Part shown: positions 4,271 through 18,226 of the stretch, piece by piece | How positions within the stretch are numbered: position 1 is the stretch's first letter | Layout: each line of letters opens with the position of its first letter | Assembly (NCBI GenBank): GCA_965207945.1 | Contig: OZ242303.1 | Span: forward strand, 61,199 to 125,198 | Direction: 5' to 3' | From: Gammaproteobacteria bacterium | Lineage (GTDB): Bacteria; Pseudomonadota; Gammaproteobacteria; CBDBNL01; JAAOII01 | Length of the DNA stretch: 64,000 nt | The notes under the pieces: model-generated | The model's input: only the letters and a program-made list of their open reading frames with translations | Told to the model about the DNA's origin: nothing | Databases searched by the model: none | Translations under genes and position numbers: made by a program

Positions 4271-4407
4271 ATATGTATTATAGGGAAAACTTTATAAATG
4301 TGAGGCAATGTTAAGCATAGTTAGACATTATTTGCGGAAATTTTGGATTATTATTGCTCTAATCACTTGTAATTGAAGCATAAAGATCTATAAATAACTG
4401 TGTAATG

Positions 4408-4416
4408 TGGTATAAT
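4408..4416 (+). promoter_or_regulatory. Candidate extended -10 element (TGgTATAAT) for rpoD in the divergent guaB/rpoD intergenic region.
   Basis: The sequence tgtggTATAAT sits 38 nt upstream of the annotated ATG at 4454. I see no good -35 hexamer. Confidence 0.3.
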
Positions 4417-4453
4417 TATACCCCAATCGGCACCCTTTACATTAAATACATAA

Positions 4454-7117
4454 ATGATTGATAAACAGACAAGCGGAAAAGCAGCAGAGCCGCCTAAAAA
4501 AGATGCGGGCAAATCCTCTGGAAACTCCGCTACAAAACCCGCAATAAAGATTGCAAAGGTTGCGCGTAAAAGTGCAACAGCAAAAACATTGAAGGCATCA
4601 GAAGTGCTAAAGTCGTCGTCAAAGGCAGTAAAGCCATCAGGGGCGTCAAAGCCGTTAAGCAAGCAAGCCAAGCCAGTTGCGGTTAAAAAAGCAAAACCAG
4701 CTGCTTCCGCTTCTTCCAAGCCAGCGAAGGGAACAGCGAAGGGAACTAAGTCAGCTAAGCCCAAGTCAGCAGCACCTAAAGCAGTTGTTTCTAAGAAGAG
4801 TGCATCAAGTCCATCCAAGACGAGCAAACCTTCAACTACAGCTAATAAGAAGGCAAAACCCGTCACCAAGGCAGCTGCTAAACCATCAGCCAAGCCATCC
4901 GCTAAATCATCAACCAAATTAAAGTCAGGGTCAAAGCTGACATCACGCAATAAATCTAATACTAAACATAAAGAGGGGACAAAAATGTTATCTACAGCTA
5001 CAACAACCGCAAACAAAGCGGAAGAGACGAGAGTAATAAAAACGGCAGACGCTTTAAATAAAACGGGAAATAAAACGGGAAAGAAAGCCAGTAAAAGCGT
5101 ATCAGCTAAACCAGCAACTAAAGGAAAAACAAAAGCTAAAATTACTGCATCAAACCAGAAAGCAGCTACCAGTAAAAAGACATCGCAAGATTCATCAACA
5201 ACTAAAGGCAAGGGGTTTGATGATTATAAAATTAGCGCCAGGTTGGAAGAGCTAATAGCCAAAGGAAAAGAAGCAGGCAAGATTGGCAACGATGATATAG
5301 ACCAATGCATTGCAGATATAGTGGAAGACCATGAAGATATCAATGTAACCGAACTCACTTCCCATATAGCCGAAGGGCTGCGCTCTAATGATGTTGACGT
5401 TAAAGACGAAAGTGAAAGCGATTTGGATTATAACGTTAGCGGCTTGTATGACGATGATGATTCAAGCTCGGACGTAAAAGTAGATGCAGATAGTTTAGGG
5501 GATGCTCCTTCAAGCGGAAATTTCTTGGCAGGGAGTATAGATGATATGGACCACCTAAGCCCCGAGGAATTAACTGGACCAGGCAGAGGGGCAATAAGCG
5601 CTCCAATAAAAATGTATATGCGCCAGATGGGTTCTCATGCTCTGCTGGATCGTGAAGAAGAATTAACCTTAGCCAAAAGGATAGAACACAATATGCGTAG
5701 TGTGATGGGGCAGCTGGCTTATTTTCACTACGAAGTTCAGAAAGTAGTTGATAGCCATAATGCAGCTCATAAAGCCAAAGGTAAATTTAATGAGGTGTGC
5801 ATGGCGCTTTATCGTGAAGATGAAGTAGATATGACAGCTCAGATAGCTGAAGTAAAGAAGAACATGCCCAAGAGTGTTTCGGTGCAGAAGCGCCGCAGCA
5901 ATATCAGCCAACGCATGAAGAAGCTGCGCAGCGATATGAACGATATAATGACTCGCTTGGAAAGACAACTCAAGGCAGCCAAACTATCTTATCAAAATGG
6001 CGATGCTCTGGGTAAGGTAGCTCGGAAAAAACAAGAGCACCTGAGCCGCACTCTTTCTTTGATGAAACTGCAGCCCCATTACTATGAGGAGCTAATTTTA
6101 AATGCAGAAAACCTATTGCGTTCTATTTATAAGGCGGAAGAGGTTATAGAAAACATAGCAGTTGGCAAGGCGGGCTACGACAAAGAACTTATTCACGAAA
6201 AGGTAATATCCACTCCTCGCTATTTTACCTCTCTGGCAAAACGCACTGGACCTAAGGCGAAGATAATTGAAAAACATCTGAAAGAACTTGAAGATGCAGC
6301 CAGTGATTTGCTTATGGTAGTCATGGTATGTAATATGCCGTTAGATATGATTAAGAAATTGACTAAGAATATTCTCACCGCGAATCGCCAAGCAGATAAG
6401 GATAAAAAGAAAATGGTAGAGGCAAATTTAAGGTTGGTTATCTCAATTGCTAAAAGATATACTAATCGCGGACAACAATTGCTGGACTTAATCCAAGAAG
6501 GCAATATTGGATTGATGAAGGCAGTGGATAAGTTTGAATATAAAAGAGGATTCAAGTTCTCTACTTATGCTACTTGGTGGATAAGACAAGCAGTTACCCG
6601 CTCTATCGCCGACCAAGCGCGCACTATACGGGTGCCCGTCCACATGATAGAGACAATGAATAAACTCAGCCGTCTGCAAAGAACCGCCATGCAGAAATAT
6701 CAGAGAGAAGCAACTCCGCAAGAACTCGCAGTGGAGATGGAATTGCCAGAAGATAAAATCCACCGCATGCTGAAAATTGCTAAAGAGACAATTTCTACCG
6801 AGACCCCAGTGGGAGATGAGGAGGACGCAAGTTTGAAGGATTTTATTGAAGACACCCAAACCCTATCTCCTTATGAAACAACTCTAAAGACAAACCTAAA
6901 GACCGAGATGCATAAAGCAATTAGCTCTTTACCCGAGAAAGAGGCAAAGGTGTTGAGTATGAGATTTGGCTTGGAAACCAATAGCGACTATACATTGGAT
7001 GAGATTAGCCGCCAACTTTCGGTAACCCGTGAAAGAATTAGACAGATAGAATCCCGTGCCCTGCGCCGCCTGAATAATTTAGCTAATGTTGAAACAATAA
7101 AAGAATTTAGGGAATAA
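4454..7117 (+). CDS. rpoD: RNA polymerase sigma-70 (RpoD) with a ~250-aa Lys/Ala-rich histone-H1-like N-terminal extension. An alternative internal start at 4985 is possible.
   Basis: Regions 1.2 through 4 are conserved ([10 protein letters not shown], the [19 protein letters not shown] 2.4/-10 recognition segment, and the region 4 helix-turn-helix). The N-terminal 250 aa are KPAAK/KSAKP repeats, and the ORF stays open through them. Confidence 0.9.
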
Positions 7118-7259: not shown

Positions 7260-10200
7260 TCAATCCACCCACAACCTGGCATTGTAAAACATTGCTTGCC
7301 AAGGGGTTATATAAGAGGTTGCCACCTCCGCTTTTCTTTGTATGGCTGTGGCGGATTTATCATGCCAGCACTGATTCACTCTTCTTAACGTCCTTTCTGG
7401 ATGCGGCATTAATAGCGTAACCCTGCCATCTTTGGATGTCATACCGGCAATGCCATGCTCAGAACCATTGGGATTGAGCGGATAAGCGGGATTATCATTT
7501 CCCTGTCCGTCTGTATAAACCATTGCTGCTCGTTTCTTGTTAAGCGCCTGTTCGCCGTCCTTGCTCCTGCTAAAAGTTGCCATGCCTTCACCATGTGCCG
7601 AAGCAATTGGTATAACGCTACCTTCCATGCCTGTAAAAAATATACTTGGTGATTTGCATATTTTCACCATAACCGTACGTGCTTCAAACCTACGTGATTC
7701 GTTACGCTGGAAGCGGCAATTCCAATCCGCCCCTTCAATAATCTCCTGTAGGCGAGACAGCACCTGACAACCATTGCATATCCCCAGCGTAAAGGTATCC
7801 TTGCGTTGAAAGAATTGCTGAAACTCTTCTTTAAGTTTGGGATTATATAGAATGCTTGCCGCCCAACCAACTCCAGCGCCCAAAGCATCGCCGTAAGTAA
7901 AGCCGCCACAGAAAACTGCCCCTTTATAATCCTTCAATTTATCGGAGCCATCTTTTTTGAGGTCATTTATATGCACATCCACCGCCTCAAAACCCGCATT
8001 ATGAAAGGCAAGAGCGGTTTCTATATTACTATTCACTCCCTGTGTGCGCAAAATTGCAACCTTAGGACGGCTTTTGTTTAGCAGCTTTATGCTGTTATAG
8101 CTATTATATTTCCCCGCCATATCAAACTTAATATTCTCTTGAATTCCTTTATAGTTAAAATCTTCTATTAGGAGCGCTTCCTGTTTAACACACTGTGGAT
8201 TATCATCCCTGAGTTCACGTATATTATCTGAAACCTTGTTCCACAACGAACGCATTGCACTCATCTTTTTATCTATCAGAGTCCGTCCAGCACAGCTAAT
8301 TTCTATCCTATCTTTATCAATGGGGACGCCAAGCTTATGCACAACTAAATTATGTTGCTTTCCACGCTCTAATACCTTACTCTCATTCTCGGGCGCCACT
8401 TGGATAACAGCACCTGCCTCTTCACCAAATAGGGCGGTATACTCATTCTGCTGTTGTTTCATCATCCCAGTTAAATCAATGGATAGCCCGCAATTGGAAG
8501 CAAAAGCCATTTCACTTAACGTTGTCCATAACCCGCCATCCGACACATCATGATAGGCAAGCAATAACTTATCGTGCACTGCATCGCTAACAAAAGAAAA
8601 GAAGTTGGCAATATCCTTGGGCGACTCTATGTCCGCAGTTTCCCCCTCCCATTGTTGCATCACTTGTGCCAGCGCCGAACCCCCAAGACGATTACTGCCA
8701 TGCCGTGTGCTAACCAGCCACAAGGAGGGCAGCATATTTTTATAAGTGTCGGTATGTAATAGTGAGTTGTCAGCACCAGTGTTTTTATAAGTGTCGGTTT
8801 GCAATAGCGAGTTGTCAGCACCAGTGTTTTTATAAGTGTCGGTATGCAATAGTGAGTTATCGCCATCAATGTTTTTATAAGTGTCGGTTTGTAATAGTGG
8901 GTCAACCCCCAACCTGACATCTATTAGTGGCGCCAGCCCGCTCATTATCAAAGATAGAGGCGATATAACATTTTGCTTATCCCAGGAGGCAGACATAAAT
9001 AAAGAATCCTTGCCAACCGGTATAGCAAGCCCCAACTCCTGACACATTTCTTCAGTTAAAGTCCTAACCCCCTCATAGAGATTTGCCATCTGACCATCCT
9101 CATTGCTGGCAGCCATCCAGTTAGCACATAGTTTTATATCCTGTAGTTTCTTTATGCCGCTGGCAGCCAAATTAGTTACTACCTCTGCCAATGCCATACG
9201 CACCGCCGCTTTGGGATTGAGGATTGCCAAAGGAGTACGCTCACCAATTGCCGCCGCCTCACCACCAAACCCGCTAAAATCTGCCAAAGTGGCGGCATAA
9301 TCATTGATTGGCACTTGCCAGGGACCAACCATCTGCTCTCGCGCCGTCAGACCGCCAACAAACCTATCACCAATAGTAATTAGAAAGCCCTTGCTTGCCA
9401 CCGCTGGCAACTGCAGCACCTTCTCTGCATACTCACTAATCTCGCTAATGTTTGGTACCACAAAATCCTTAGTTTCAACTGGTACATAAGAGACGATAAT
9501 CTCCTTAGGTGTTTTAGGGAATAGAATTTCAAGGGGCAAGTTGATGGCATCGGTATCCCGACTATCTTCTTTATTCTCACGATTATCCTTATTATCCTGC
9601 TGCATCAGACGCAGTTCACCACTCTTGTTAGTTTTACCTATTACCTTGTAAGGAGCATTCTCACGCTGGCAGATTTTATCAAACTCATCCAAACGCTCTG
9701 GATCCACCGCCAGCAAAAATCTCTCTTGGCTTTCATTACTCCATACTTCTGCTGGAGACATAGAAGGATCCGCAACAGGAATATCACGCAGCTCAACCTC
9801 ACCACCACATTTGCCATCCTTCAACAGTTCCGCTACTGCGTTGCCGAGCCCTCCAGCTCCCAAGTCGTGTATAAAAATAATTGGGTTTTTCTTCCCCTGG
9901 CGCGAGCAGGCCTCAATCGCCTCTGCACATCTTTTTTCCGTCTCCGCATTATCACGTTGCACCGAAGCAAAATCTAACTCTACATTCTTCTTGCCGCCGC
10001 TACTTTTAAGGGAAGATACTGAACCACCACCAATCCCAATTCGTAATGCAGGTTCTCCCATAAGCACTAAATGCGCTCCCTCATCAATTTCCTCTGGCTT
10101 GATAGCTTGGTCGTTGCTAATCTCGCCCCAACCACCAGCAAGCATAATTGGTTTATGATAACCGTATTTGATACCATCTCTTTCACAACTTAGAGTGCGA

Positions 10201-11507
10201 AAGTATCCTGCCAAGGTAGGTCTGCCAAACTCATTAGCATAGTGACTGCTACCCAAAGGTGCCTCCAACATTATCTGTTGGGCTGATGCCTTGCCAAAAG
10301 GGCAACCAAAATCCTGCTCCCAAGTATAATTATTTTTATCCAACAGCAGGTCGGATACACTAAAGCCAGCAAACCCAGCTTTAGTTCTACCTCCTATGCC
10401 GCAGGCGAGTTCATCCCTTATCTCTCCGCCAACCCCAGTGGCAGCCCCTGGAAAGGGTGACACAAATGTAGGATGATTGTGTGTTTCGGCTTTGAATATT
10501 AGATGACGCTTTTGTTCTCTATGCTGATATTCACTAGAGCTATCTCCCTCATAACGATTGAAAGCAGATATCTTTGCAGTGGCAAAGATAGCCGCATTAT
10601 CTGTATATGCGGAAACTAAACCAGCAGGAGATTTTTTACTGGTTTCTTTGATGAGCCCAAACATTGTCGGACTGTGACCATTCTGGCTTGAAGATTTATC
10701 CGCCGAGTCGTCGCTGCTTATCACAGCATTAAAAATCTTATGGCGACAATGTTCCGAATTAAGTTGCGCAAACAGCATCAACTCTGCATCTGTAGCAGGG
10801 CGTTCAAGCTTGTGATAAACCTCCCGCAGATACTCTAACTCATCCTCACTAATCGCCAAACCCCATTCTCTATTGGCAACTTGCAGCTCAGCAAGGTCAT
10901 CCATATTGACACGCCTTAAATCATTGTCGGCATGGCTATCAATAAAATACCGCTCCAATTCTTGCTCGGACAATATCTCTTGCGTCATCTTATCGCAAAC
11001 TGAACCTTTCAACTCGTCTATATTATTTTTCAATGAAGCAGGAAGTGCATATTTATAACCCTTTTCAATTAATCTTCCACCATCCCAATCTTTTAACGAA
11101 GGAAAAATATCCTCAAGTATATCCTGCGTCTTGCTCGACCAAGGAGAATGAGTGCCACGCCGCGGCGCCACATAAAAGAGGGTATCTCGGAAGGAGTGAG
11201 TAGCCGCCTGGCTGTGAGAGGGTGCATCATCTTTATTAGCCAGTGATATCGCGCCAAAATTTGTACTGAATAATAATTTTTTCAGTTGTTCTTTTTCTCG
11301 CTCATTAAAAGGGTGATCTGGATGAAGGAAAAAGAACTCGCTACGAGTTGCAGTATAAATTGATTTAACAACATGCCCTTTACCGGATTTGGGTGCATGA
11401 AGGATAACTGGAATATCTATCTTCTCACTTGACAATCCCTTTTCGTCAAAAATAATCTCGGTGCGTGATTGTTTGTCCGACTCTGACACCAAATCCTTAT
11501 GATTCAT
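7260..11507 (-). CDS. purL: Phosphoribosylformylglycinamidine synthase, large single-chain form.
   Basis: 1415 aa. The FGAM synthetase core is followed by a C-terminal glutamine amidotransferase domain with GICNGCQ. It carries extra insertions relative to E. coli PurL (1295 aa). Confidence 0.95.
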   Translation of the reverse strand: MNHKDLVSESDKQSRTEIIFDEKGLSSEKIDIPVILHAPKSGKGHVVKSIYTATRSEFFFLHPDHPFNEREKEQLKKLLFSTNFGAISLANKDDAPSHSQAATHSFRDTLFYVAPRRGTHSPWSSKTQDILEDIFPSLKDWDGGRLIEKGYKYALPASLKNNIDELKGSVCDKMTQEILSEQELERYFIDSHADNDLRRVNMDDLAELQVANREWGLAISEDELEYLREVYHKLERPATDAELMLFAQLNSEHCRHKIFNAVISSDDSADKSSSQNGHSPTMFGLIKETSKKSPAGLVSAYTDNAAIFATAKISAFNRYEGDSSSEYQHREQKRHLIFKAETHNHPTFVSPFPGAATGVGGEIRDELACGIGGRTKAGFAGFSVSDLLLDKNNYTWEQDFGCPFGKASAQQIMLEAPLGSSHYANEFGRPTLAGYFRTLSCERDGIKYGYHKPIMLAGGWGEISNDQAIKPEEIDEGAHLVLMGEPALRIGIGGGSVSSLKSSGGKKNVELDFASVQRDNAETEKRCAEAIEACSRQGKKNPIIFIHDLGAGGLGNAVAELLKDGKCGGEVELRDIPVADPSMSPAEVWSNESQERFLLAVDPERLDEFDKICQRENAPYKVIGKTNKSGELRLMQQDNKDNRENKEDSRDTDAINLPLEILFPKTPKEIIVSYVPVETKDFVVPNISEISEYAEKVLQLPAVASKGFLITIGDRFVGGLTAREQMVGPWQVPINDYAATLADFSGFGGEAAAIGERTPLAILNPKAAVRMALAEVVTNLAASGIKKLQDIKLCANWMAASNEDGQMANLYEGVRTLTEEMCQELGLAIPVGKDSLFMSASWDKQNVISPLSLIMSGLAPLIDVRLGVDPLLQTDTYKNIDGDNSLLHTDTYKNTGADNSLLQTDTYKNTGADNSLLHTDTYKNMLPSLWLVSTRHGSNRLGGSALAQVMQQWEGETADIESPKDIANFFSFVSDAVHDKLLLAYHDVSDGGLWTTLSEMAFASNCGLSIDLTGMMKQQQNEYTALFGEEAGAVIQVAPENESKVLERGKQHNLVVHKLGVPIDKDRIEISCAGRTLIDKKMSAMRSLWNKVSDNIRELRDDNPQCVKQEALLIEDFNYKGIQENIKFDMAGKYNSYNSIKLLNKSRPKVAILRTQGVNSNIETALAFHNAGFEAVDVHINDLKKDGSDKLKDYKGAVFCGGFTYGDALGAGVGWAASILYNPKLKEEFQQFFQRKDTFTLGICNGCQVLSRLQEIIEGADWNCRFQRNESRRFEARTVMVKICKSPSIFFTGMEGSVIPIASAHGEGMATFSRSKDGEQALNKKRAAMVYTDGQGNDNPAYPLNPNGSEHGIAGMTSKDGRVTLLMPHPERTLRRVNQCWHDKSATAIQRKAEVATSYITPWQAMFYNARLWVD
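8737..8905 (-). repeat. In-frame tandem 45-bp repeat of about 3.7 copies inside purL, encoding four 15-aa units of the form LLQTDTYKN(T/I)G(A/D)DNS.
   Basis: The plus strand shows tttttataagtgtcggt(a/t)tg(t/c)aatag(t/c)gagttgtcagcaccagtg repeated head to tail. The frame is preserved through the repeats. Confidence 0.85.
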
Positions 11508-11956
11508 TAGAGTAAAACTTTAATTGTAATTGTCTTATATCTATCCGCACGCAAACTCCCTAAAACTAACATATTCATTTAGCAAGCAAGGTTATTGAAA
11601 AAGTGCATTCATTGTAGCACTATTATATTACATTATAGAGATTTCAATCCTTGTAGTCATCGGTTGTATTGAATATTTCTGCCCGTTCTGTTTTATTGCT
11701 TTACCCTAAAAATAGAAGAATACTTACTTAATGGGAGATAGTATAATTCCCCTTGATAAAATTGTACTTCAGTTAGTCAGCAGACACCAAAAAACCTCTT
11801 CAGATTAAACGTCACTATGCAAAGATGATTAAAGAATTTTATATGGAGATATTTGAACCAGGCGCTATAATTTTCATGGTCATAATTAATTTTTTAATGT
11901 ATAATTAACGTTTTATTATTAATAAATTTTTATAAACCATACAAAGGAGTAGTACC

Positions 11957-12262
11957 ATGATTGAAGCAGTATTTATAAACAATGATGGAAAGATCGTAGA
12001 AGTTTCTGTGAGGAACATTTATGATATTTCCAATAAAATCCAACGATTAGTAAATGATAACAACTTCCCATTGCATGAAAGTGAGGAAGAAGCTACGAGG
12101 GCTGGAAGTTCGTATGATCGCATCTCCAGATCTGATATGAATGAGTGGACTGATGCCCGTAAGGAATTAATAAAGCAGGCAGATAGTAATCAAAGTTTAT
12201 GGATATTAATTTCTTTCTTTGATTCTTTGGCGGAAAAAGTTGGGATGCAGAACTATAAATAA
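11957..12262 (+). CDS. Hypothetical small protein (101 aa) at the left edge of the island.
   Basis: The ORF has a good AAGGAG Shine-Dalgarno 7 nt upstream. I see no recognisable domain. Confidence 0.4.
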   Translation: MIEAVFINNDGKIVEVSVRNIYDISNKIQRLVNDNNFPLHESEEEATRAGSSYDRISRSDMNEWTDARKELIKQADSNQSLWILISFFDSLAEKVGMQNYK

Positions 12263-12355
12263 TATAAATATTTTAAGGAGTATGTTGTTGATAAACTAGG
12301 AGGCTTATTCTAATACACTTTCTGCTAGTATATCTTTAACTTATAATATAAAGCA

Positions 12356-12718
12356 ATGAAAGAGAAAATGAAGTTTAATTACGGCAACGTTAGGCGCATA
12401 CCTGATAATCTATCTGGGGTTTATGCATTTTGGGTTTTCCCTGAGGCTATTAGTGTTTGGCGATGCCTTTATATTGGAAAAGCAGACGTTTGCTTAAAGA
12501 AAAGATTAAAAAATCACTGGGATAGAGAACCTAGTGTAGGGAAAGATTTTATTGATGATAGAGAGGTATACTCAGATGATTTGTACTTTTGTTACTATTC
12601 AAGGAGTTATCTAGATAAGCAAAAGGTACATAACTTGGAGAGTATGCTAATTAAAAAATGGGGGCCTGATAGTAATACTGTCAAAAAAATTAAGAAATTA
12701 AAGTATAATAGAAAGTGA
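12356..12718 (+). CDS. GIY-YIG nuclease-family protein (120 aa).
   Basis: The GIY-YIG motifs are visible: GVYAF…YIGKA…RLKNH, followed by a conserved Glu. Confidence 0.65.
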   Translation: MKEKMKFNYGNVRRIPDNLSGVYAFWVFPEAISVWRCLYIGKADVCLKKRLKNHWDREPSVGKDFIDDREVYSDDLYFCYYSRSYLDKQKVHNLESMLIKKWGPDSNTVKKIKKLKYNRK

Positions 12719-12754
12719 ATTTAGTAATAATTAACCGAAGAGGAAATTAATAAC

Positions 12755-14071
12755 ATGTCAATTACATTACCTGTGATAAGAGGTCAAATGGGGATACATA
12801 CATATTATGTGGCTACAATGTCTGCACAAGATGCGACATTATTAATAAAAATGCCAAGCATTGTACCTGGCTGGAATTCTATTGAAGCTAGAGCTCAAAG
12901 AACGGTGGATTCTAAAAGAGTTGAGAAGGGGTTATATCCTTACTTAACTAATAAAAGTGCCGATAGATTTTTTGGCTCTTTAATAGTTGGAGTTCAATAT
13001 CTGGAAGAGGCGGATACTAGTAGTAAGATAGACAAAAAAAAGAAAAAAATTGTTTTTGAACCTATCGAAAAATATGGGGATTTACCCGTTGCATATGACC
13101 AACCAGCCGAAAGAATGGGAATATTAACTATAAAAGATAGTAGTATACTAGTAGTTCCTTATGATGGACAGCATAGGTTATTAGGATTAAGGTATGCTAT
13201 TGAAGGAAGAAAAAACACAGGGGATGAGATTCGTTCAGGAGAAAACAATCTCTCGGTGGCTAAGGATATAATTTCTGTTATTCTTCTTCCATATAGCGTA
13301 GGAACTTCCAGAAATATATTTACCAAACTTAATAGATATTCTAAGCCAACCAGTGCTACCCAGAATTATATCACCGATGATGATGACTCTATAGCGAGCA
13401 TAGCAAGAAAAATAACAAATACGGTTATTAACCAAAAGAGAGACGATATTGATTTAGTTAATTGGATAAGCAATTCTTTAAAGAAGAAGGATGGTTACTT
13501 CACCACACTTGATACGATTTACAAATGCACAAAGGCAATAATAGAAGAGATAGCGTCTAAAAAAATTCTAACAGGTGAAAGATTGAAGGATGAACTGGAG
13601 AGGAAATATTTTAAAGCAGCAAAGGATACTTGGGAGTTTTTATTAAAAGAGATAGATGAGTTTAAGGATGCTTTAAAGAATAGAACTAAAGCGGGTGATG
13701 AAAATAGAATGCAGATACGCGAATATTCGTTGCTTGGGAAGCCAGTGCCTCAGCAATGCATAGTAGAGGCATTTTTAAAAATTATAAGAGATAAAAAGAT
13801 ATCAAAGGAAGAGGCTGTTAAAAGGTTAAATAAAATACCCTGGGATATAGGAAATCCGCTATGGGATAGCATACTGTGGCAAGGAGATGGGGATACAGGA
13901 AAAATATTGACCAAAGGTAAAAAAATTGCCATTGATCTAGTATCTTACATGTGTGGGGCAACCATGACAACTGCTCAAGAAAGTAATCTATTAGCAAGAT
14001 ATGAGGCTTTATTATCACCTGATGATAATAGGAGGGGAAAGTTACCTAATAAGTTGAATAAACGCAGCTAG
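12755..14071 (+). CDS. DGQHR-domain protein, DndB-like (ParB/sulfiredoxin fold).
   Basis: The N-terminus LPVIRGQMGIHTYYVATM matches the DndB PAIRG…YY signature, and the eponymous YDGQHRLLGL motif is present. 438 aa. Confidence 0.8.
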   Translation: MSITLPVIRGQMGIHTYYVATMSAQDATLLIKMPSIVPGWNSIEARAQRTVDSKRVEKGLYPYLTNKSADRFFGSLIVGVQYLEEADTSSKIDKKKKKIVFEPIEKYGDLPVAYDQPAERMGILTIKDSSILVVPYDGQHRLLGLRYAIEGRKNTGDEIRSGENNLSVAKDIISVILLPYSVGTSRNIFTKLNRYSKPTSATQNYITDDDDSIASIARKITNTVINQKRDDIDLVNWISNSLKKKDGYFTTLDTIYKCTKAIIEEIASKKILTGERLKDELERKYFKAAKDTWEFLLKEIDEFKDALKNRTKAGDENRMQIREYSLLGKPVPQQCIVEAFLKIIRDKKISKEEAVKRLNKIPWDIGNPLWDSILWQGDGDTGKILTKGKKIAIDLVSYMCGATMTTAQESNLLARYEALLSPDDNRRGKLPNKLNKRS

Positions 14072-15243
14072 TGGTTAGATCACTTTCTGCTGCCGTCCCT
14101 GCTACAGATAACATAATAGCGACAAGTGCGGAATTCCTTAATCCTATTAGCTTAAAAGAAAAAATATCACGCATCCAAGCAGACATAGAGGAAGCCTATT
14201 TTGAGAAGACCTGTCCGTGGGTTATTGCTTATTCCGGAGGGAAGGACTCTACTATGGTACTTCAGTTGGTCTGTGAGTTCTTATTATCCTTGCCCAAAGA
14301 CAAGCATAATAAAGAAATCCATATAGTGTCAAATGATACTCGTGTGGAGTCGCCCGTTATATCACAACATTTAGATAAAAGCTTGGAGTTACTCAAAAAA
14401 TTTCAAAAAGAACACTCGCTACCTATCAAGGTGCAGAAAACAGTGCCAGCAGAGAATGATTCTTTTTGGGTGAATCTCATAGGGCGTGGTTACATACCAC
14501 CGACTAGAGTGTTTAGGTGGTGTACTAGCAAGATGAAAATAGAACCAACCAACAAGTACATTAAGAACTTCATAGATAGGAATGGTGAAGTAGTCCTTTT
14601 ATTAGGGGTAAGGACAAGTGAATCAACTTCGCGCGGAAGATCTATTAAGAAGCACACCAATGACGATGGGACTAGGTATAACCCTCATAGTATGATGCCG
14701 AAGTGCTTAATATATAGACCGATTATAGATATAGAGAATGAAGAAATATGGCAGTTACTGCTGCAACGTCCTTCCCTTTGGGGTGGAAATAATCGCGAGC
14801 TAATTACTATTTACAGAAATGCTGCTGGTGGAGAATGCCCTACAGTTCTGTCCGAAGACGATGCCCCTTCTTGTGGGTCGTCATCTGTTAGGTTTGGTTG
14901 CTGGACGTGCACCGTTATTAGCAAAGATAGGAGCTTGGGCGGCCTAGTAGATTCTGGACTTGATTATCTAGAACCCTACATGAATTTTAGAGATTGGTTA
15001 ATAGAATTAAGAGAAGATGATGGCAATAGAACACCCGTGCGTAGAAATGGCCGTTGGAAGAAAAAAGAAAATGGTTCTACGGTTAAGGGACCATTTTTAA
15101 TAAGTATTCGCAAGGAGATATATAGTAGATTACTTGAATTAGAGAAAGAAGTAGGAGAGAAATTAATTACTAAGAGCGAAATTTTCTTAATAGAAAGAAT
15201 CTGGCGCCAAGATGAGAAAAAAGCAATCTGGCCAGTAAATTAA
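14071..15243 (+). CDS. PAPS-reductase-family PP-loop ATP pyrophosphatase, DndC/SspD/IbrA-like, with a C-terminal Cys cluster.
   Basis: The PP-loop VIAYSGGKDST is present, together with Cys motifs ECPTV…SCGSS…RFGCWTCT. The GTG start overlaps the upstream stop (TAGTG), consistent with translational coupling. Confidence 0.8.
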   Translation: MVRSLSAAVPATDNIIATSAEFLNPISLKEKISRIQADIEEAYFEKTCPWVIAYSGGKDSTMVLQLVCEFLLSLPKDKHNKEIHIVSNDTRVESPVISQHLDKSLELLKKFQKEHSLPIKVQKTVPAENDSFWVNLIGRGYIPPTRVFRWCTSKMKIEPTNKYIKNFIDRNGEVVLLLGVRTSESTSRGRSIKKHTNDDGTRYNPHSMMPKCLIYRPIIDIENEEIWQLLLQRPSLWGGNNRELITIYRNAAGGECPTVLSEDDAPSCGSSSVRFGCWTCTVISKDRSLGGLVDSGLDYLEPYMNFRDWLIELREDDGNRTPVRRNGRWKKKENGSTVKGPFLISIRKEIYSRLLELEKEVGEKLITKSEIFLIERIWRQDEKKAIWPVN

Positions 15244-15254
15244 GTAGTGTTATA

Positions 15255-17000
15255 GTGAAGAAAAATCCTTTTTCTGCCAAAGCTCTACCACTGTATGAAC
15301 TCTTTAATGGCTTTATGGCGGAGCACAATATAGAGTCATTTCTCATTCCACAATATCAGAGGTTCTACTCATGGAAACCTAAGCATGTGAAGGACCTTTT
15401 ATCAGATATAGCTATGGCTATAACTGATAATGAAGATGGTTTTTTTTTAGGACCCATTCTATTATCTAATTCCCCAGAATCCCAGAAGAGTATTTCAATA
15501 GTTGATGGTCAGCAGAGGATAATAACCACGTCCCTAATTTTAGGGGCATTAATGCATCATGTTTATAACTTGAAACAAGAGAACAATGAAGTTGCTATGC
15601 GCTGCCTTTGGGATTTACCCAAAGAACTCACAGATATAGCCCATATATCACCTGGCAATATACCAACTAAACTAAGCTTTTCTTTAGAAAATGATGATAC
15701 TTCTTATCAGCTGATGATATGTGATAATCAGGCATATATTTCAGGACCTATTAAAAAAGCTTATGAAAGTATAAATGCATTTTTTGCTGGGTACTCTTAT
15801 GAAGATACTTGTAAGTATATCAATTATCTCACTAATAAGGTGTTCTTTGTGGCAATAAAACCAGATGAACATGTCAAGCAAATAAACAAGATATTTGAAA
15901 CATTGAATGATAGAGGGATGCCTCTTAATCAAATAGAGTTATTTAAGAACTTTGCACTTAGTTATTTTAGCCCCCGTGACAAGAAATTTGATTTATTTGA
16001 AAAACTATACATGTGGCTAAATACTGTGGATTCTGTTGAAAGATATTTGGCTGTATATTCTATGCTGCACTATGATTATAAGACAGTTAAGCGTGAGAAA
16101 AATTTATACAGGTTATGGAAAAATAGAATCTATGAATATCCAAAGTCCGAGAGGAAGAGTCAAATGCGTATTATTCTTGATGACCTCTCATCCTCTCTTG
16201 AATATTACCAGGCGATCTCCAAAGAGGGCAGTTCGCTTTGGATGACAAGGTATAAAGGTGCAGCAATGAATGATGACAGAATGCTTGCTATGATTCAATT
16301 TTTGAGTAAATACAAAATTACTCATCCTATTCTTTTTGCTATAGTTAAAAGAGAACCTGGCTATAAGGTTTTGAAAAGCTGCTATCATATAATTTATTCC
16401 CTTTTAGCTAGAGTGTGGTTAATTCACTCTCTATCACGGGCTGGCAATTTGGAGGAAATATTAACCACTGTAGCATTAGGTATAAATAAGAAAGAAATTG
16501 AACTATCTCCTGATAATCTATATAAGAATATAGTTAAACAAGCTGGATCTCACTATACAGATATAACGGATGATAAACTATTTAGTACCAAGTTGGGCGT
16601 TATAGAATATCCAGGAAATGTGGATCCCCGCACTAAATTCATATTTACTGAGATAGTTAACTCAAATCAAAAAGAGATTAAGATTATGAAGGAAGATACC
16701 CTCAAGGTATCCCATGTATTGCCTAGGGATGAAGGGGAGCTCTCCGATTGGGGTGGCTTCCCTTTAGCGGATTACCTTACAAGCCGCCATAAATTAGGAA
16801 ACATGGTTTTATTAAATGGAGAAGCCCCTCGGGTTGTTAATAGTCAATCTTTTAAAGAAAAGAAAAAGATCTTTGCGGAATCTGATTTTGATATAACTAA
16901 AAATATATCTTTGGTGCATAATTGGGGTCCACAAGAGATCCAACAAAAGCAAAAAGAATACGCCCAGCAAATCACCCAAATACTTTCATTGCCCTCTTAA
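15255..17000 (+). CDS. DUF262 + DUF1524 protein (GmrSD/SspE-like putative modification-dependent or modification-sensing nuclease).
   Basis: The N-terminal DUF262 signature is IPQYQRFYSW…VDGQQRI. The C-terminal DUF1524 His-Me motif is VSHVLPRDEG…GN(M)VLLN. 581 aa, with a GTG start. Confidence 0.8.
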   Translation: MKKNPFSAKALPLYELFNGFMAEHNIESFLIPQYQRFYSWKPKHVKDLLSDIAMAITDNEDGFFLGPILLSNSPESQKSISIVDGQQRIITTSLILGALMHHVYNLKQENNEVAMRCLWDLPKELTDIAHISPGNIPTKLSFSLENDDTSYQLMICDNQAYISGPIKKAYESINAFFAGYSYEDTCKYINYLTNKVFFVAIKPDEHVKQINKIFETLNDRGMPLNQIELFKNFALSYFSPRDKKFDLFEKLYMWLNTVDSVERYLAVYSMLHYDYKTVKREKNLYRLWKNRIYEYPKSERKSQMRIILDDLSSSLEYYQAISKEGSSLWMTRYKGAAMNDDRMLAMIQFLSKYKITHPILFAIVKREPGYKVLKSCYHIIYSLLARVWLIHSLSRAGNLEEILTTVALGINKKEIELSPDNLYKNIVKQAGSHYTDITDDKLFSTKLGVIEYPGNVDPRTKFIFTEIVNSNQKEIKIMKEDTLKVSHVLPRDEGELSDWGGFPLADYLTSRHKLGNMVLLNGEAPRVVNSQSFKEKKKIFAESDFDITKNISLVHNWGPQEIQQKQKEYAQQITQILSLPS

Positions 17001-17158
17001 CTGTCATTATCTCTCAGCCAGTATAAATTATTCTGGCTTATAATTCTATAATACCTTTTATACAATTTACCCAATAATAATGCAGGCATACAACCTCCAC
17101 ACCATACCCCCCCAACCTCACCATCTTGCAATCCCAACATATAATATAATCCATATAT

Positions 17159-18226
17159 ATGAAAGATAAGATTAAGGTAGCTATTTATGGAGCTTCGGGT
17201 TATACCAGTTCGGAGTTGTTGCGGTTGCTTGAGCAGCATCCGAATGTGCAGGTTTGCGCGGTGGTGTCGCACTCGCAAGTTGGTAAGTGTTTGGGTGCGT
17301 TGCATCCCCATCTTGGTGAGGAGCTTGGCGCTATGGAGGCGATTTCTGCCGAGCAGGTTCCTGATTGTGATTGTGTATTTTTTGCTACGCCAGCGTGTGT
17401 TGCAATTAAGGAGGCGGGTAGGTTGTTAGATAAGGGGGTAAAAGTTATAGATTTGTCGCCCGATTTTCGGATTAAGGATGCCAAGTTATGGCAGCAGTGG
17501 TACGCAAAGGAGCATGGCGCGACTGATTTATTGGCAGAGGCGGTGTATGGTTTGCCTGAGGCGAATCGCGCTGCCATTAAGAAGGCGCGGCTTATTGCTA
17601 ATCCAGGTTGCTATGCAACTACGGTGCAGTTGGCATTGTTGCCGTCATTGCTATCCGCTAAGCATGGTGGGCAACTTGCAGGTAAGGAGTTAGTCGTGGA
17701 TGCCAAGTCCGGCGTTAGTGGGGCGGGTAAGAATCTGGCAACCGATCTTTTATTGGGTGAGGCGGGAGAGGATTTTACCTGCTATTCAGCGGAAGGGCAT
17801 AGGCATCAGCCAGAGATGGAGGAGTCATTACAAGAAAAGAGTGGAGTAAATGTGAAGCTACGTTTTGTTCCTCATTTATTGCCGCTGGTGCGTGGAATTT
17901 TTGTGGATATATATTTACCGCTTGGCAGTGGAAGTGATAACAATCCAGCTGCTGATGAATTAAGAAGCGTGTATAGTAAGTTTTATGCCGCCGAGCCGTT
18001 TGTGAAAGTATTGGCTAAGGGGCAGGCACCACATATTAAACATACTCGCGGGAGCAATCATTGTCATTTAGCTGTTTTCGCTGCTCCTGGTTCTACTTAT
18101 ATACAGGTGTGTGGAGTTTTGGATAACTTGGTTAAGGGGGCGTCTGGTCAGGCGATCCAGAATATGAATATTATTTTTGGTTTGGATGAGAAGGAGGGGC
18201 TGCAGCAGGCAGCGTTGACGCCTTAG
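17159..18226 (+). CDS. argC: N-acetyl-gamma-glutamyl-phosphate reductase.
   Basis: IAIYGASGYTSSELLRLLEQHP at the N-terminus and the catalytic-Cys region NPGCYAT. Confidence 0.9.
   Translation: MKDKIKVAIYGASGYTSSELLRLLEQHPNVQVCAVVSHSQVGKCLGALHPHLGEELGAMEAISAEQVPDCDCVFFATPACVAIKEAGRLLDKGVKVIDLSPDFRIKDAKLWQQWYAKEHGATDLLAEAVYGLPEANRAAIKKARLIANPGCYATTVQLALLPSLLSAKHGGQLAGKELVVDAKSGVSGAGKNLATDLLLGEAGEDFTCYSAEGHRHQPEMEESLQEKSGVNVKLRFVPHLLPLVRGIFVDIYLPLGSGSDNNPAADELRSVYSKFYAAEPFVKVLAKGQAPHIKHTRGSNHCHLAVFAAPGSTYIQVCGVLDNLVKGASGQAIQNMNIIFGLDEKEGLQQAALTP

Follow-up and report, generated by a model that had tools for sequence, protein, structure and literature searches.

The window analysed here is a stretch of 64,000 nucleotides (64 kb) from a gammaproteobacterial genome (contig OZ242303.1, positions 61,199 to 125,198), and it carries a low-GC island in which one open reading frame (ORF) encodes a fusion of a DUF262 and a DUF1524 domain. 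We find that this DUF262-DUF1524 protein is an integral part of a cassette specific to one clade of DndC, an enzyme of DNA phosphorothioate (PT) modification, and that it is not a hitch-hiker. Our favoured reading, which we hold at roughly even chances, is that the protein is a PT reader and effector, driven by nucleoside triphosphate (NTP), in a self-contained PT cassette of four to five genes. The gene in question is:

15255 to 17000, + strand: DUF262-DUF1524 (GmrSD_N plus GmrSD_C) protein, DndI/SspE-like, GTG start, 581 amino acids (aa)

Both domains exceed their Pfam gathering cutoffs within a single polypeptide, N-domain first: PF03235 (GmrSD_N/DUF262) spans residues 25-233 of the 581-aa protein (E 1.2e-31, 110.9 bits against a cutoff of 33.2) and PF07510 (GmrSD_C/DUF1524) residues 438-571 (E 8.1e-14, 52.1 bits against 23). 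This bears out the fusion proposed in a first-pass annotation made from the sequence alone, and the two motifs quoted there are present as well, DGQQR at residues 84-88 and SHVLPRDEG at residues 486-494. Among the PADLOC models, the candidate family HEC-06 matches the full length of the protein (7.8e-65), the 'Orf5' models also match it (7.3e-51), and the SspE models cover its N-domain only (residues ~20-116). The GTG start is credible because homologues are collinear with the protein and align from residue 1. The island also occupies this site in a related strain, L090, where none of the five ORFs is disrupted. The L090 copy of the protein is full length and 99.3% identical, with 4 non-synonymous differences and a ratio of non-synonymous to synonymous substitution rates (dN/dS) of 0.13; degraded copies in related strains would, as the first-pass annotation had argued, have weakened the link to the neighbouring genes. 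Since domains, motifs, operon setting and the full-length L090 copy agree, ORF 15255-17000 is a genuine intact gene, neither a chance ORF nor a pseudogene.

The link to DndC was studied from both sides. For the DndC side, a DndC alignment served as the query against genomes sampled at one per species; we called and clustered the ORFs of the best 80 loci and labelled the recurrent neighbours with Pfam. Neighbour-joining of 81 DndC sequences, without support values, places the 16 that have an adjacent DUF262-DUF1524 homologue in a single clade (clade A), and none of the 65 others has one (Fisher p=3e-17). DndD and DndE were found within 6 kb at 0/16 clade-A loci, while most other DndC loci have both. 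Seen from the other side, all relatives of at least 31% identity with a readable context (L001, L002, L003-L005, L006, L172 and L090) adjoin a short PAPS-reductase/DndC gene of 376-389 aa (PAPS, 3'-phosphoadenosine-5'-phosphosulfate), so the linkage is obligate in both directions among the loci covered.

The DndC loci fall into three architectures. The first is the canonical DndB-DndC-DndD-DndE-DndA and the second consists of DndC, Sp-DndD, DndD and a DndE fused to an FtsK/HerA ATPase. The third, [cysteine desulfurase]-DndC-DUF262-DUF1524-GIY-YIG-DndB, is without DndD and DndE. Within clade A there are two subclades, A1, which holds the window, and the larger A2, and between them the gene order is cyclically permuted: GIY-YIG, DndB, DndC, DUF262-DUF1524 in A1 and DndA, DndC, DUF262-DUF1524, GIY-YIG, DndB in A2. 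The former order is found in L001, L002, L172 and L090; in L006 the DUF262-DUF1524 gene comes first, followed by GIY-YIG, DndB, DndC and another, cut ORF. Two pairs are invariant across A1 and A2, DndC followed by DUF262-DUF1524 and GIY-YIG followed by DndB, and the reading frames of the first pair overlap by 7-26 nucleotides (nt) in L001, L002, L003 and L172. A cysteine desulfurase gene lies directly 5' of DndC in 6/11 A2 loci and at the end of the cassette in a seventh (L010), which supports sulfur transfer. The best-hit BLAST class of the top 170 relatives in a library of 1.84 billion representatives is A1 for ~15 and A2 for ~59, and only 41 library proteins match the window protein at E <= 1e-30.

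The cassettes are flanked by unrelated housekeeping genes, e.g. for a major facilitator superfamily (MFS) transporter, aconitase, leucyl-tRNA synthetase (LeuRS) or a citrate transporter. In L002, two copies of a ~480-bp stretch (4364-4845 and 9842-10323) flank the four-gene cassette. The duplicate comprises the upstream region and first 139 codons of a glucose/sorbosone dehydrogenase (GSDH) gene, and its two copies are 96% identical over 300 nt, with 137/139 aa shared. Because this GSDH duplication brackets the four genes, the L002 cassette is a discrete inserted unit of ~5 kb.

Could the gene nevertheless be an independent type IV (modification-dependent) enzyme of the GmrSD/BrxU kind, which sits in the island by chance? 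The first-pass annotation had offered this next to a functional tie with the DndB/DndC-like pair directly upstream. The domain pair is the same as in GmrSD and BrxU, which are NTP-stimulated nucleases, the Pfam architecture is identical to that of GmrSD, HEC-06 matches over the full length, and more distant relatives (L007-L009, none above 26% identity) occur by themselves or beside unrelated genes. Even so, we regard this explanation as highly improbable. GmrSD and BrxU are stand-alone, modification-dependent enzymes, whereas the window gene co-occurs perfectly with one DndC clade across phyla, gene orders and insertion sites; a BrxU fold match is not significant and the BrxU sequence match is marginal (E 0.0065); and a type IV enzyme that responded to PT would turn on the marked DNA of its own host. 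Controls agree. A metagenome scan with the clade alignment, dominated by generic DUF262 patterns of ~25% identity at best and used as a negative control only, gave DndC, DndB or GIY-YIG near 0/80 loci that encode generic relatives, and DndC-like loci on viral contigs had a DUF262-DUF1524 homologue in 0/80 cases. The plasmid collection held no clade-A protein above ~25% identity, and the phage collection no close DndC. Hitch-hiking is rejected because the clade-specific linkage survives changes of order and location while both controls give 0/80. The position proposed for the gene is accurate, with DndC 11 nt upstream and DndB overlapping DndC by 1 nt, and of the two alternatives it is the tie to this pair that stands.

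Among proteins of known structure the closest is DndI. A family profile searched against PDB matches DndI (9JFL) at 5e-63 over its full length (residues 14-567), SspE in the N-domain only and BrxU at the marginal value given above. An AlphaFold2 (AF2) model of the protein (predicted local distance difference test, pLDDT, 83) has DndI 9JFL as its best Foldseek match (E 9.6e-16, template-modelling (TM) scores 0.66/0.65), then SspE at TM 0.42-0.44, and no significant match to BrxU. The proposed kinship with SspE-type proteins is upheld, with DndI ahead of SspE. The description as a GmrSD-type relative holds for the Pfam architecture, but the nearest solved relative is DndI and not GmrSD or BrxU. 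By BLASTP, DndI matches the window protein at E 4e-6 with 24% identity in the N-domain only, and DndI scores better against the stand-alone relatives (1e-26) than against the window protein. The window protein is DndI-like in fold and family and is not a DndI orthologue.

DndI, from the IscS-DndBCDE-DndI system of Salmonella enterica Cerro 87, is likewise a protein of ~590 aa that joins a DUF262 domain with DGQQR to a DUF1524 His-Me domain and is encoded beside dndB and dndC. It differs in working with a complete DndBCDE, where the window cassette is without DndD and DndE; moreover, a GIY-YIG gene belongs to the window cassette. SspE, of the SspABCD-SspE system (6JIV/7DRS), is also a ParB-like NTPase joined to a DUF1524 nickase that senses PT, its partner too is a PP-loop enzyme that inserts sulfur (SspD), and DndD and DndE are likewise missing from the system. 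However, SspE has ~770 aa and resembles the window protein in the N-domain only, with the low TM scores above, and the Ssp system has SspB (a nickase) and SspC (an ORC/Cdc6-type ATPase), neither of which is encoded at the window cassette. Both DndI and SspE sense PT and act as NTPase-nickases, and modification does not depend on either (PMC11662687; PMC12914056).

Which catalytic residues does the window protein retain? The counts below come from an alignment of 167 relatives, with DndI positions mapped through the alignment to 9JFL.

15354 to 15362, + strand: Y34-Q35-R36, with Y34 aligned to Y25 of DndI (alignment to 9JFL)
15504 to 15518, + strand: D84-G-Q-Q-R88, NTPase motif of the ParB-like domain, invariant in 167/167 relatives
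16710 to 16724, + strand: S486-H487-V-L-P490, first His-Me finger motif (consensus E-H-x-L-P), His kept and Glu replaced by Ser
16797 to 16829, + strand: G515-N516 ... P525, second and third His-Me motifs, P525 in the column of DndI N541

The motifs of the NTPase half are intact. DGQQR is without exception, the FETLNDRG motif is present and invariant or nearly so among the relatives, and Q35 and R36 are kept in 166/167, the remaining row being a gap. In DndI the NTPase substitution R87A leaves no ATPase activity and no defence (PMC11662687). The reported PT-sensing tyrosine of DndI is Y25 (PMC11662687); its counterpart Y34 is present in the window protein, in a column that varies between Y, H, F and N and is not diagnostic.

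The nuclease half is less regular. At position 486, 161/167 relatives have E and the window protein alone has Ser, H487 is H in 159/167, G515-N516 is invariant in 167/167, and column 525 is N in 144/167 and P in the window protein. The equivalents in DndI are E507 for position 486 and N541 for position 525, and the nuclease substitution N541A leaves DndI without nicking and without defence (PMC11662687). The His-Me tetrad E-H...N...N reads S486-H487...N516...P525 in the window protein and in its 99%-identical copy P0001. The first-pass annotation had taken the His of this motif as catalytic: H487 is indeed there, but the site is atypical, with S486 for E and P525 for the N541 equivalent, and by its residues the window protein may cut only weakly. 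The canonical tetrad is found in 67/69 stand-alone-type, 37/47 A2-type and 5/10 A1 relatives, i.e. 42/57 DndC-linked-type against 67/69 stand-alone-type (p=1.3e-4, for sequences that are not independent, library classes set by best BLAST hit and a fourth column that is alignment-sensitive). The catalytic His is gone from the A1 members P0005, P0008 and possibly P0004.

In the reading that we favour, the cassette would combine a GIY-YIG nuclease, DndB, the short clade-specific DndC and the DUF262-DUF1524 protein, often with a cysteine desulfurase in relatives. DndC would obtain sulfur from a cysteine desulfurase (IscS, from elsewhere in the genome of the window, or DndA in relatives) and would mark the host DNA. 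The DUF262-DUF1524 protein would bind DNA, consume NTP at the DGQQR site and, like DndI and SspE, separate self from non-self by contact with PT; unmarked invading DNA would then be nicked. Most family members, having a canonical His-Me site, could cut unaided, and in the window copy (S486, P525) cutting might be weak or be delegated to the GIY-YIG nuclease acting with DndB. The PT chemistry, the PT sensing and the identity of the cutter are what we infer here. The scheme is chemically possible because TdpC writes PT alone (PMC12914056).

Several observations weigh against this scheme. Pairwise similarity to DndI is weak, and DndI lies nearer to the stand-alone relatives than to the DndC-linked clade. 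Two His-Me residues that hardly vary among the relatives, one of them the counterpart of DndI N541, are missing from the window copy, and half of A1 departs from the canonical E-H..N..N tetrad, with DGQQR unchanged throughout; such erosion of the tetrad beside an invariant NTPase motif would fit an NTPase-centred role over cutting. DndC, SspD and BrxP need an NTPase partner (DndD, SspC and BrxC, respectively), and TdpC alone has been reported as self-sufficient (PMC12914056). That DndC writes PT with the DUF262-DUF1524 protein as its sole partner is an assumption, and the PT mark of clade-A members is presumed from homology.

These same features may be read in another way, which we think possible but doubtful: the DUF262-DUF1524 protein would be a subunit of the writer, replacing DndD (the ATPase) and DndE (the nicked-DNA binder) as the NTPase/nickase partner of DndC. 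DndC, the DUF262-DUF1524 protein and a cysteine desulfurase would then make up a minimal PT writer, and restriction, if any, would be carried out by GIY-YIG/DndB or by the DUF262-DUF1524 protein in a second role. According to reviews, three parts are required to install PT: an enzyme of the PAPS-reductase type, an ATPase and a component that recognises or nicks DNA (PMC12707154; PMC10853773). Neither the cassette nor the 64-kb window has another NTPase gene. The DUF262-DUF1524 gene occupies the DndD slot directly 3' of DndC, in frames that overlap or almost touch, and is strictly mutually exclusive with DndD/DndE (0/16 clade-A loci within 6 kb, where most other DndC loci have them), although this absence covers the loci and the window, and copies elsewhere in the genomes are possible. 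The invariance of DGQQR (167/167) next to a tetrad that is canonical in 42/57 DndC-linked-type against 67/69 stand-alone-type proteins points the same way, with the reservation that these classes rest on the best BLAST hit and that the fourth tetrad position is soft in the alignment. On the other hand, the characterised relatives DndI and SspE are not required for modification (PMC11662687; PMC12914056), TdpC is a PP-loop enzyme that writes PT alone (PMC12914056), and the rapid divergence of the protein and its triplication in L003 would be unusual for a core catalytic subunit. The 'effector or reader' of the first-pass annotation therefore stands in part: homology to DndI and SspE supports it, but a role as the writer's partner fits the data nearly as well. 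We raise, as a tentative proposal that is more apt to fail than to hold, that DndC with the DUF262-DUF1524 protein constitutes a fifth kind of PT-writing machine in addition to Dnd, Ssp, Tdp and BREX type 4, in which a ParB-like NTPase/His-Me nickase does the jobs of DndD and DndE, and DndB and GIY-YIG regulate or restrict.

Another possibility is that the protein is a nuclease-impaired regulator or a decaying effector: with an eroded His-Me site it would serve as an NTP-dependent, DNA-binding regulator of DndC, or be in the course of being lost, with no role in defence. S486 and P525 occupy two catalytic columns that hardly vary among the relatives, and the 99%-identical copy shares both; other A1 members are without the catalytic His (P0005, P0008 and possibly P0004), and the contig of the window measures 1.86 Mb, speculatively a reduced genome. 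Nevertheless, we judge this unlikely. The ORF is kept at full length in two strains with only 4 non-synonymous differences and dN/dS 0.13, H487 and G515-N516 are still in place, neither the NTPase motif nor FETLNDRG is damaged, and the genes of the cassette are all intact and tightly packed.

Selection on the cassette is purifying. Every cassette gene has a dN/dS of 0.13-0.26 between the window and L090, but the amino acid identities are far from even, at 69% for GIY-YIG, 78% for DndB, 96% for DndC and 99.3% for the DUF262-DUF1524 protein. The synonymous divergence (dS) of the DUF262-DUF1524 gene, 0.023, is below that of the housekeeping flanks (0.12-0.17). This mosaic pattern of divergence (12356-14071 vs 14071-17000) suggests a recent exchange of one module. 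Over longer distances, the DUF262-DUF1524 protein diverges faster than DndC (36-39% vs 60-61% identity at equal divergence). Quick evolution of this kind, together with the triplication in L003, is typical of effector or sensor modules.

The island itself covers ~5.6 kb between purL (7260-11507, - strand) and argC (17159-18226, + strand), at a G+C of 0.34-0.38 against ~0.43 elsewhere in the window. It contains five co-oriented, closely spaced ORFs: a 101-aa ORF, then GIY-YIG-like, DndB, short DndC and DUF262-DUF1524. The DndB and DndC frames overlap by 1 nt, and 11 nt separate DndC from the DUF262-DUF1524 ORF. The three partner genes are:

12356 to 12718, + strand: small GIY-YIG (URI) nuclease-like protein, 120 aa, in a BLASTP cluster with homologues from 10 other cassettes
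12755 to 14071, + strand: DndB-like protein of the ParB superfamily, 438 aa, with a DGQHR motif (PF14072, 6.8e-34)
14071 to 15243, + strand: short DndC, 390 aa (TIGR03183, 356 bits against a cutoff of 290.4)

The window 120-aa protein has no Pfam match of its own, but 9/9 of its homologues that were scanned match PF01541/PF20815, and the motifs GVY...YVG...R..H...E...N are conserved. In the cassettes the gene for DndB is always preceded by the GIY-YIG gene. The window DndB scores 81.5 bits against TIGR03187 (DGQHR), which is over the cutoff, and 62 against the 328 required for the equivalog TIGR03233. The DndC covers positions 2-365 of the 447 in TIGR03183, and its invariant residues are intact, namely the PP-loop S55-G-G-K-D-S60 and the cysteines C151, C256, C268, C277 and C280, with the CxxC type among them. 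Sequence searches of PDB with the DndC profile and with DndB gave no matches. An AF2 model of DndC, compared with PDB by Foldseek, matched generic PP-loop enzymes only (the PAPS domain of FAD synthase, TtuA, NcsA and LarE), with no DndC or TdpC structure among the matches.

Compared with DndABCDE, the window has a DndC above the equivalog cutoff of TIGR03183, a member of the DndB family and, in many relatives, an adjacent desulfurase. It differs in a DndC that is shorter by the C-terminal ~80 residues, a DndB ~70 aa longer than the canonical one, and the absence of DndD and DndE from the cassette, the 64-kb window and the 16 clade-A loci. Representatives of DndD, DndE and DndE fusions found no match in the window by tblastn, and no DndD, DndE, DndA or further Dnd/Ssp component, sspB and sspC included, was found there. 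The first-pass annotation had remarked neither on the missing DndD and DndE nor on the small GIY-YIG nuclease as a member of the cassette. The PP-loop enzyme is of the DndC type (TIGR03183), not of the Ssp type, with 45 bits to the SspD model. In TdpABC and BREX type 4 a PAPS-reductase-type enzyme likewise writes PT without DndD and DndE, TdpC by itself and BrxP together with BrxC (PMC12914056). The partners there are different, however (TdpA/TdpB; BrxC/Z/L), and the PADLOC match of the window DndC to BrxP is weak, at 56 bits.

Until now DndD and DndE have been described as the invariable core of Dnd modification (PMC10853773). A comprehensive Dnd survey was anchored on the DndD/DndE dyad and calls it always present, and a survey of dndC neighbourhoods, which made a P-loop NTPase a requirement, records a DUF262 gene from a single Sulfurimonas neighbourhood. 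These two broad surveys would have missed the cassette because of that anchoring and that requirement. In the literature we searched, which did not extend to subscription journals, we found no account of a cassette that joins DndC to a DUF262-DUF1524 protein and lacks DndD/DndE. On these sequence comparisons the cassette appears to be an undescribed variant of PT-based defence with a DndI/SspE-like component, and the protein a divergent member of the DndI-like family.

The importance of this lies in current accounts, in which DndD/DndE or SspB/SspC are the indispensable core of PT installation and DUF262-DUF1524 proteins are optional effectors. Here a coherent DndC clade, spread across many phyla, always has a DndI-like protein and never, at its loci, DndD/DndE. 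The compact four-gene cassette, of ~4.7 kb, can be cloned, which makes the question of a minimal PT writer addressable. Does the ParB-like NTPase/nickase read the mark, write it, or both? Natural variants with eroded nuclease sites, including the window copy, are ready separation-of-function alleles for asking this. If the protein were a writer subunit, the fold that reads PT in DndI and SspE would help to write it here.

Variation among the DndC loci is of some interest in its own right. At L003 3045-9761 (also in L004 and L005), three DUF262-DUF1524 paralogues (609, 640 and 586 aa) stand in tandem after DndC. Only the first has a canonical E-H..N..N, and the third has Arg for the catalytic His; these triplicated loci are without DndB or GIY-YIG and have a divergent Mrr_cat gene upstream. 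In the A2 cassettes L020 (13092-14426) and L025 (12843-15090) a SNF2-type helicase of 444-472 aa replaces the GIY-YIG/DndB pair, and in L025 a classical ParB-like protein of 274 aa follows. In the A2 loci L010 (11142-12907) and L014 (11167-12958) a frameshift breaks the DUF262-DUF1524 gene in two. We do not take these splits as evidence of dispensability: homopolymers (A6/A7, T6) lie at or near the frame change, the sequences appear to be long-read metagenome-assembled genomes (MAGs), and sequencing error is equally likely. Outside clade A, the layout DndC, small Sp-DndD, DndD and DndE-FtsK/HerA is common among short DndC proteins, at ~30 loci (L030, L032, L034, L042, L047 etc.), and loci of this type often carry a second, divergent DndB-like gene nearby. 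A stand-alone relative of 22% identity at L008 6851-9671 (also L009) lies divergently beside a C5 DNA methylase gene (PF00145), a pairing distinct from that with DndC.

Two further features precede the GIY-YIG gene in the island of the window:

11844 to 11905, + strand: two sigma-70-like promoter matches, weak candidate for an operon promoter (consensus scan, 10/12 each, with a total site count not above shuffles)
11957 to 12262, + strand: 101-aa ORF with a good ribosome-binding site, kept in L090, cassette membership uncertain

The 101-aa ORF and its L090 counterpart are 89% identical in amino acids with dN/dS 0.135. Pfam, NCBIfam, PADLOC and PHROGs assign it to no family, and the ORF at the corresponding place in L001, also of 101 aa, shows no similarity to it. 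A 14-nt AT-rich repeat (AACTTATAATATAA / AACATATAATATAA) occurs at 12338-12351 and 17136-17149, directly upstream of the GIY-YIG and argC starts, and both genes open ATGAAAGA.AA.AT. As an insertion scar of the cassette this repeat was set aside, being too short and AT-rich to rely on. The 64-kb window contains no rRNA. Finally, purL on the minus strand hosts an in-frame tandem repeat of 45 nt at 8737-8899 (3.6 copies, 89% matches), which encodes repeated 15-aa units, LLxTDTYKNxGADNS, in PurL.

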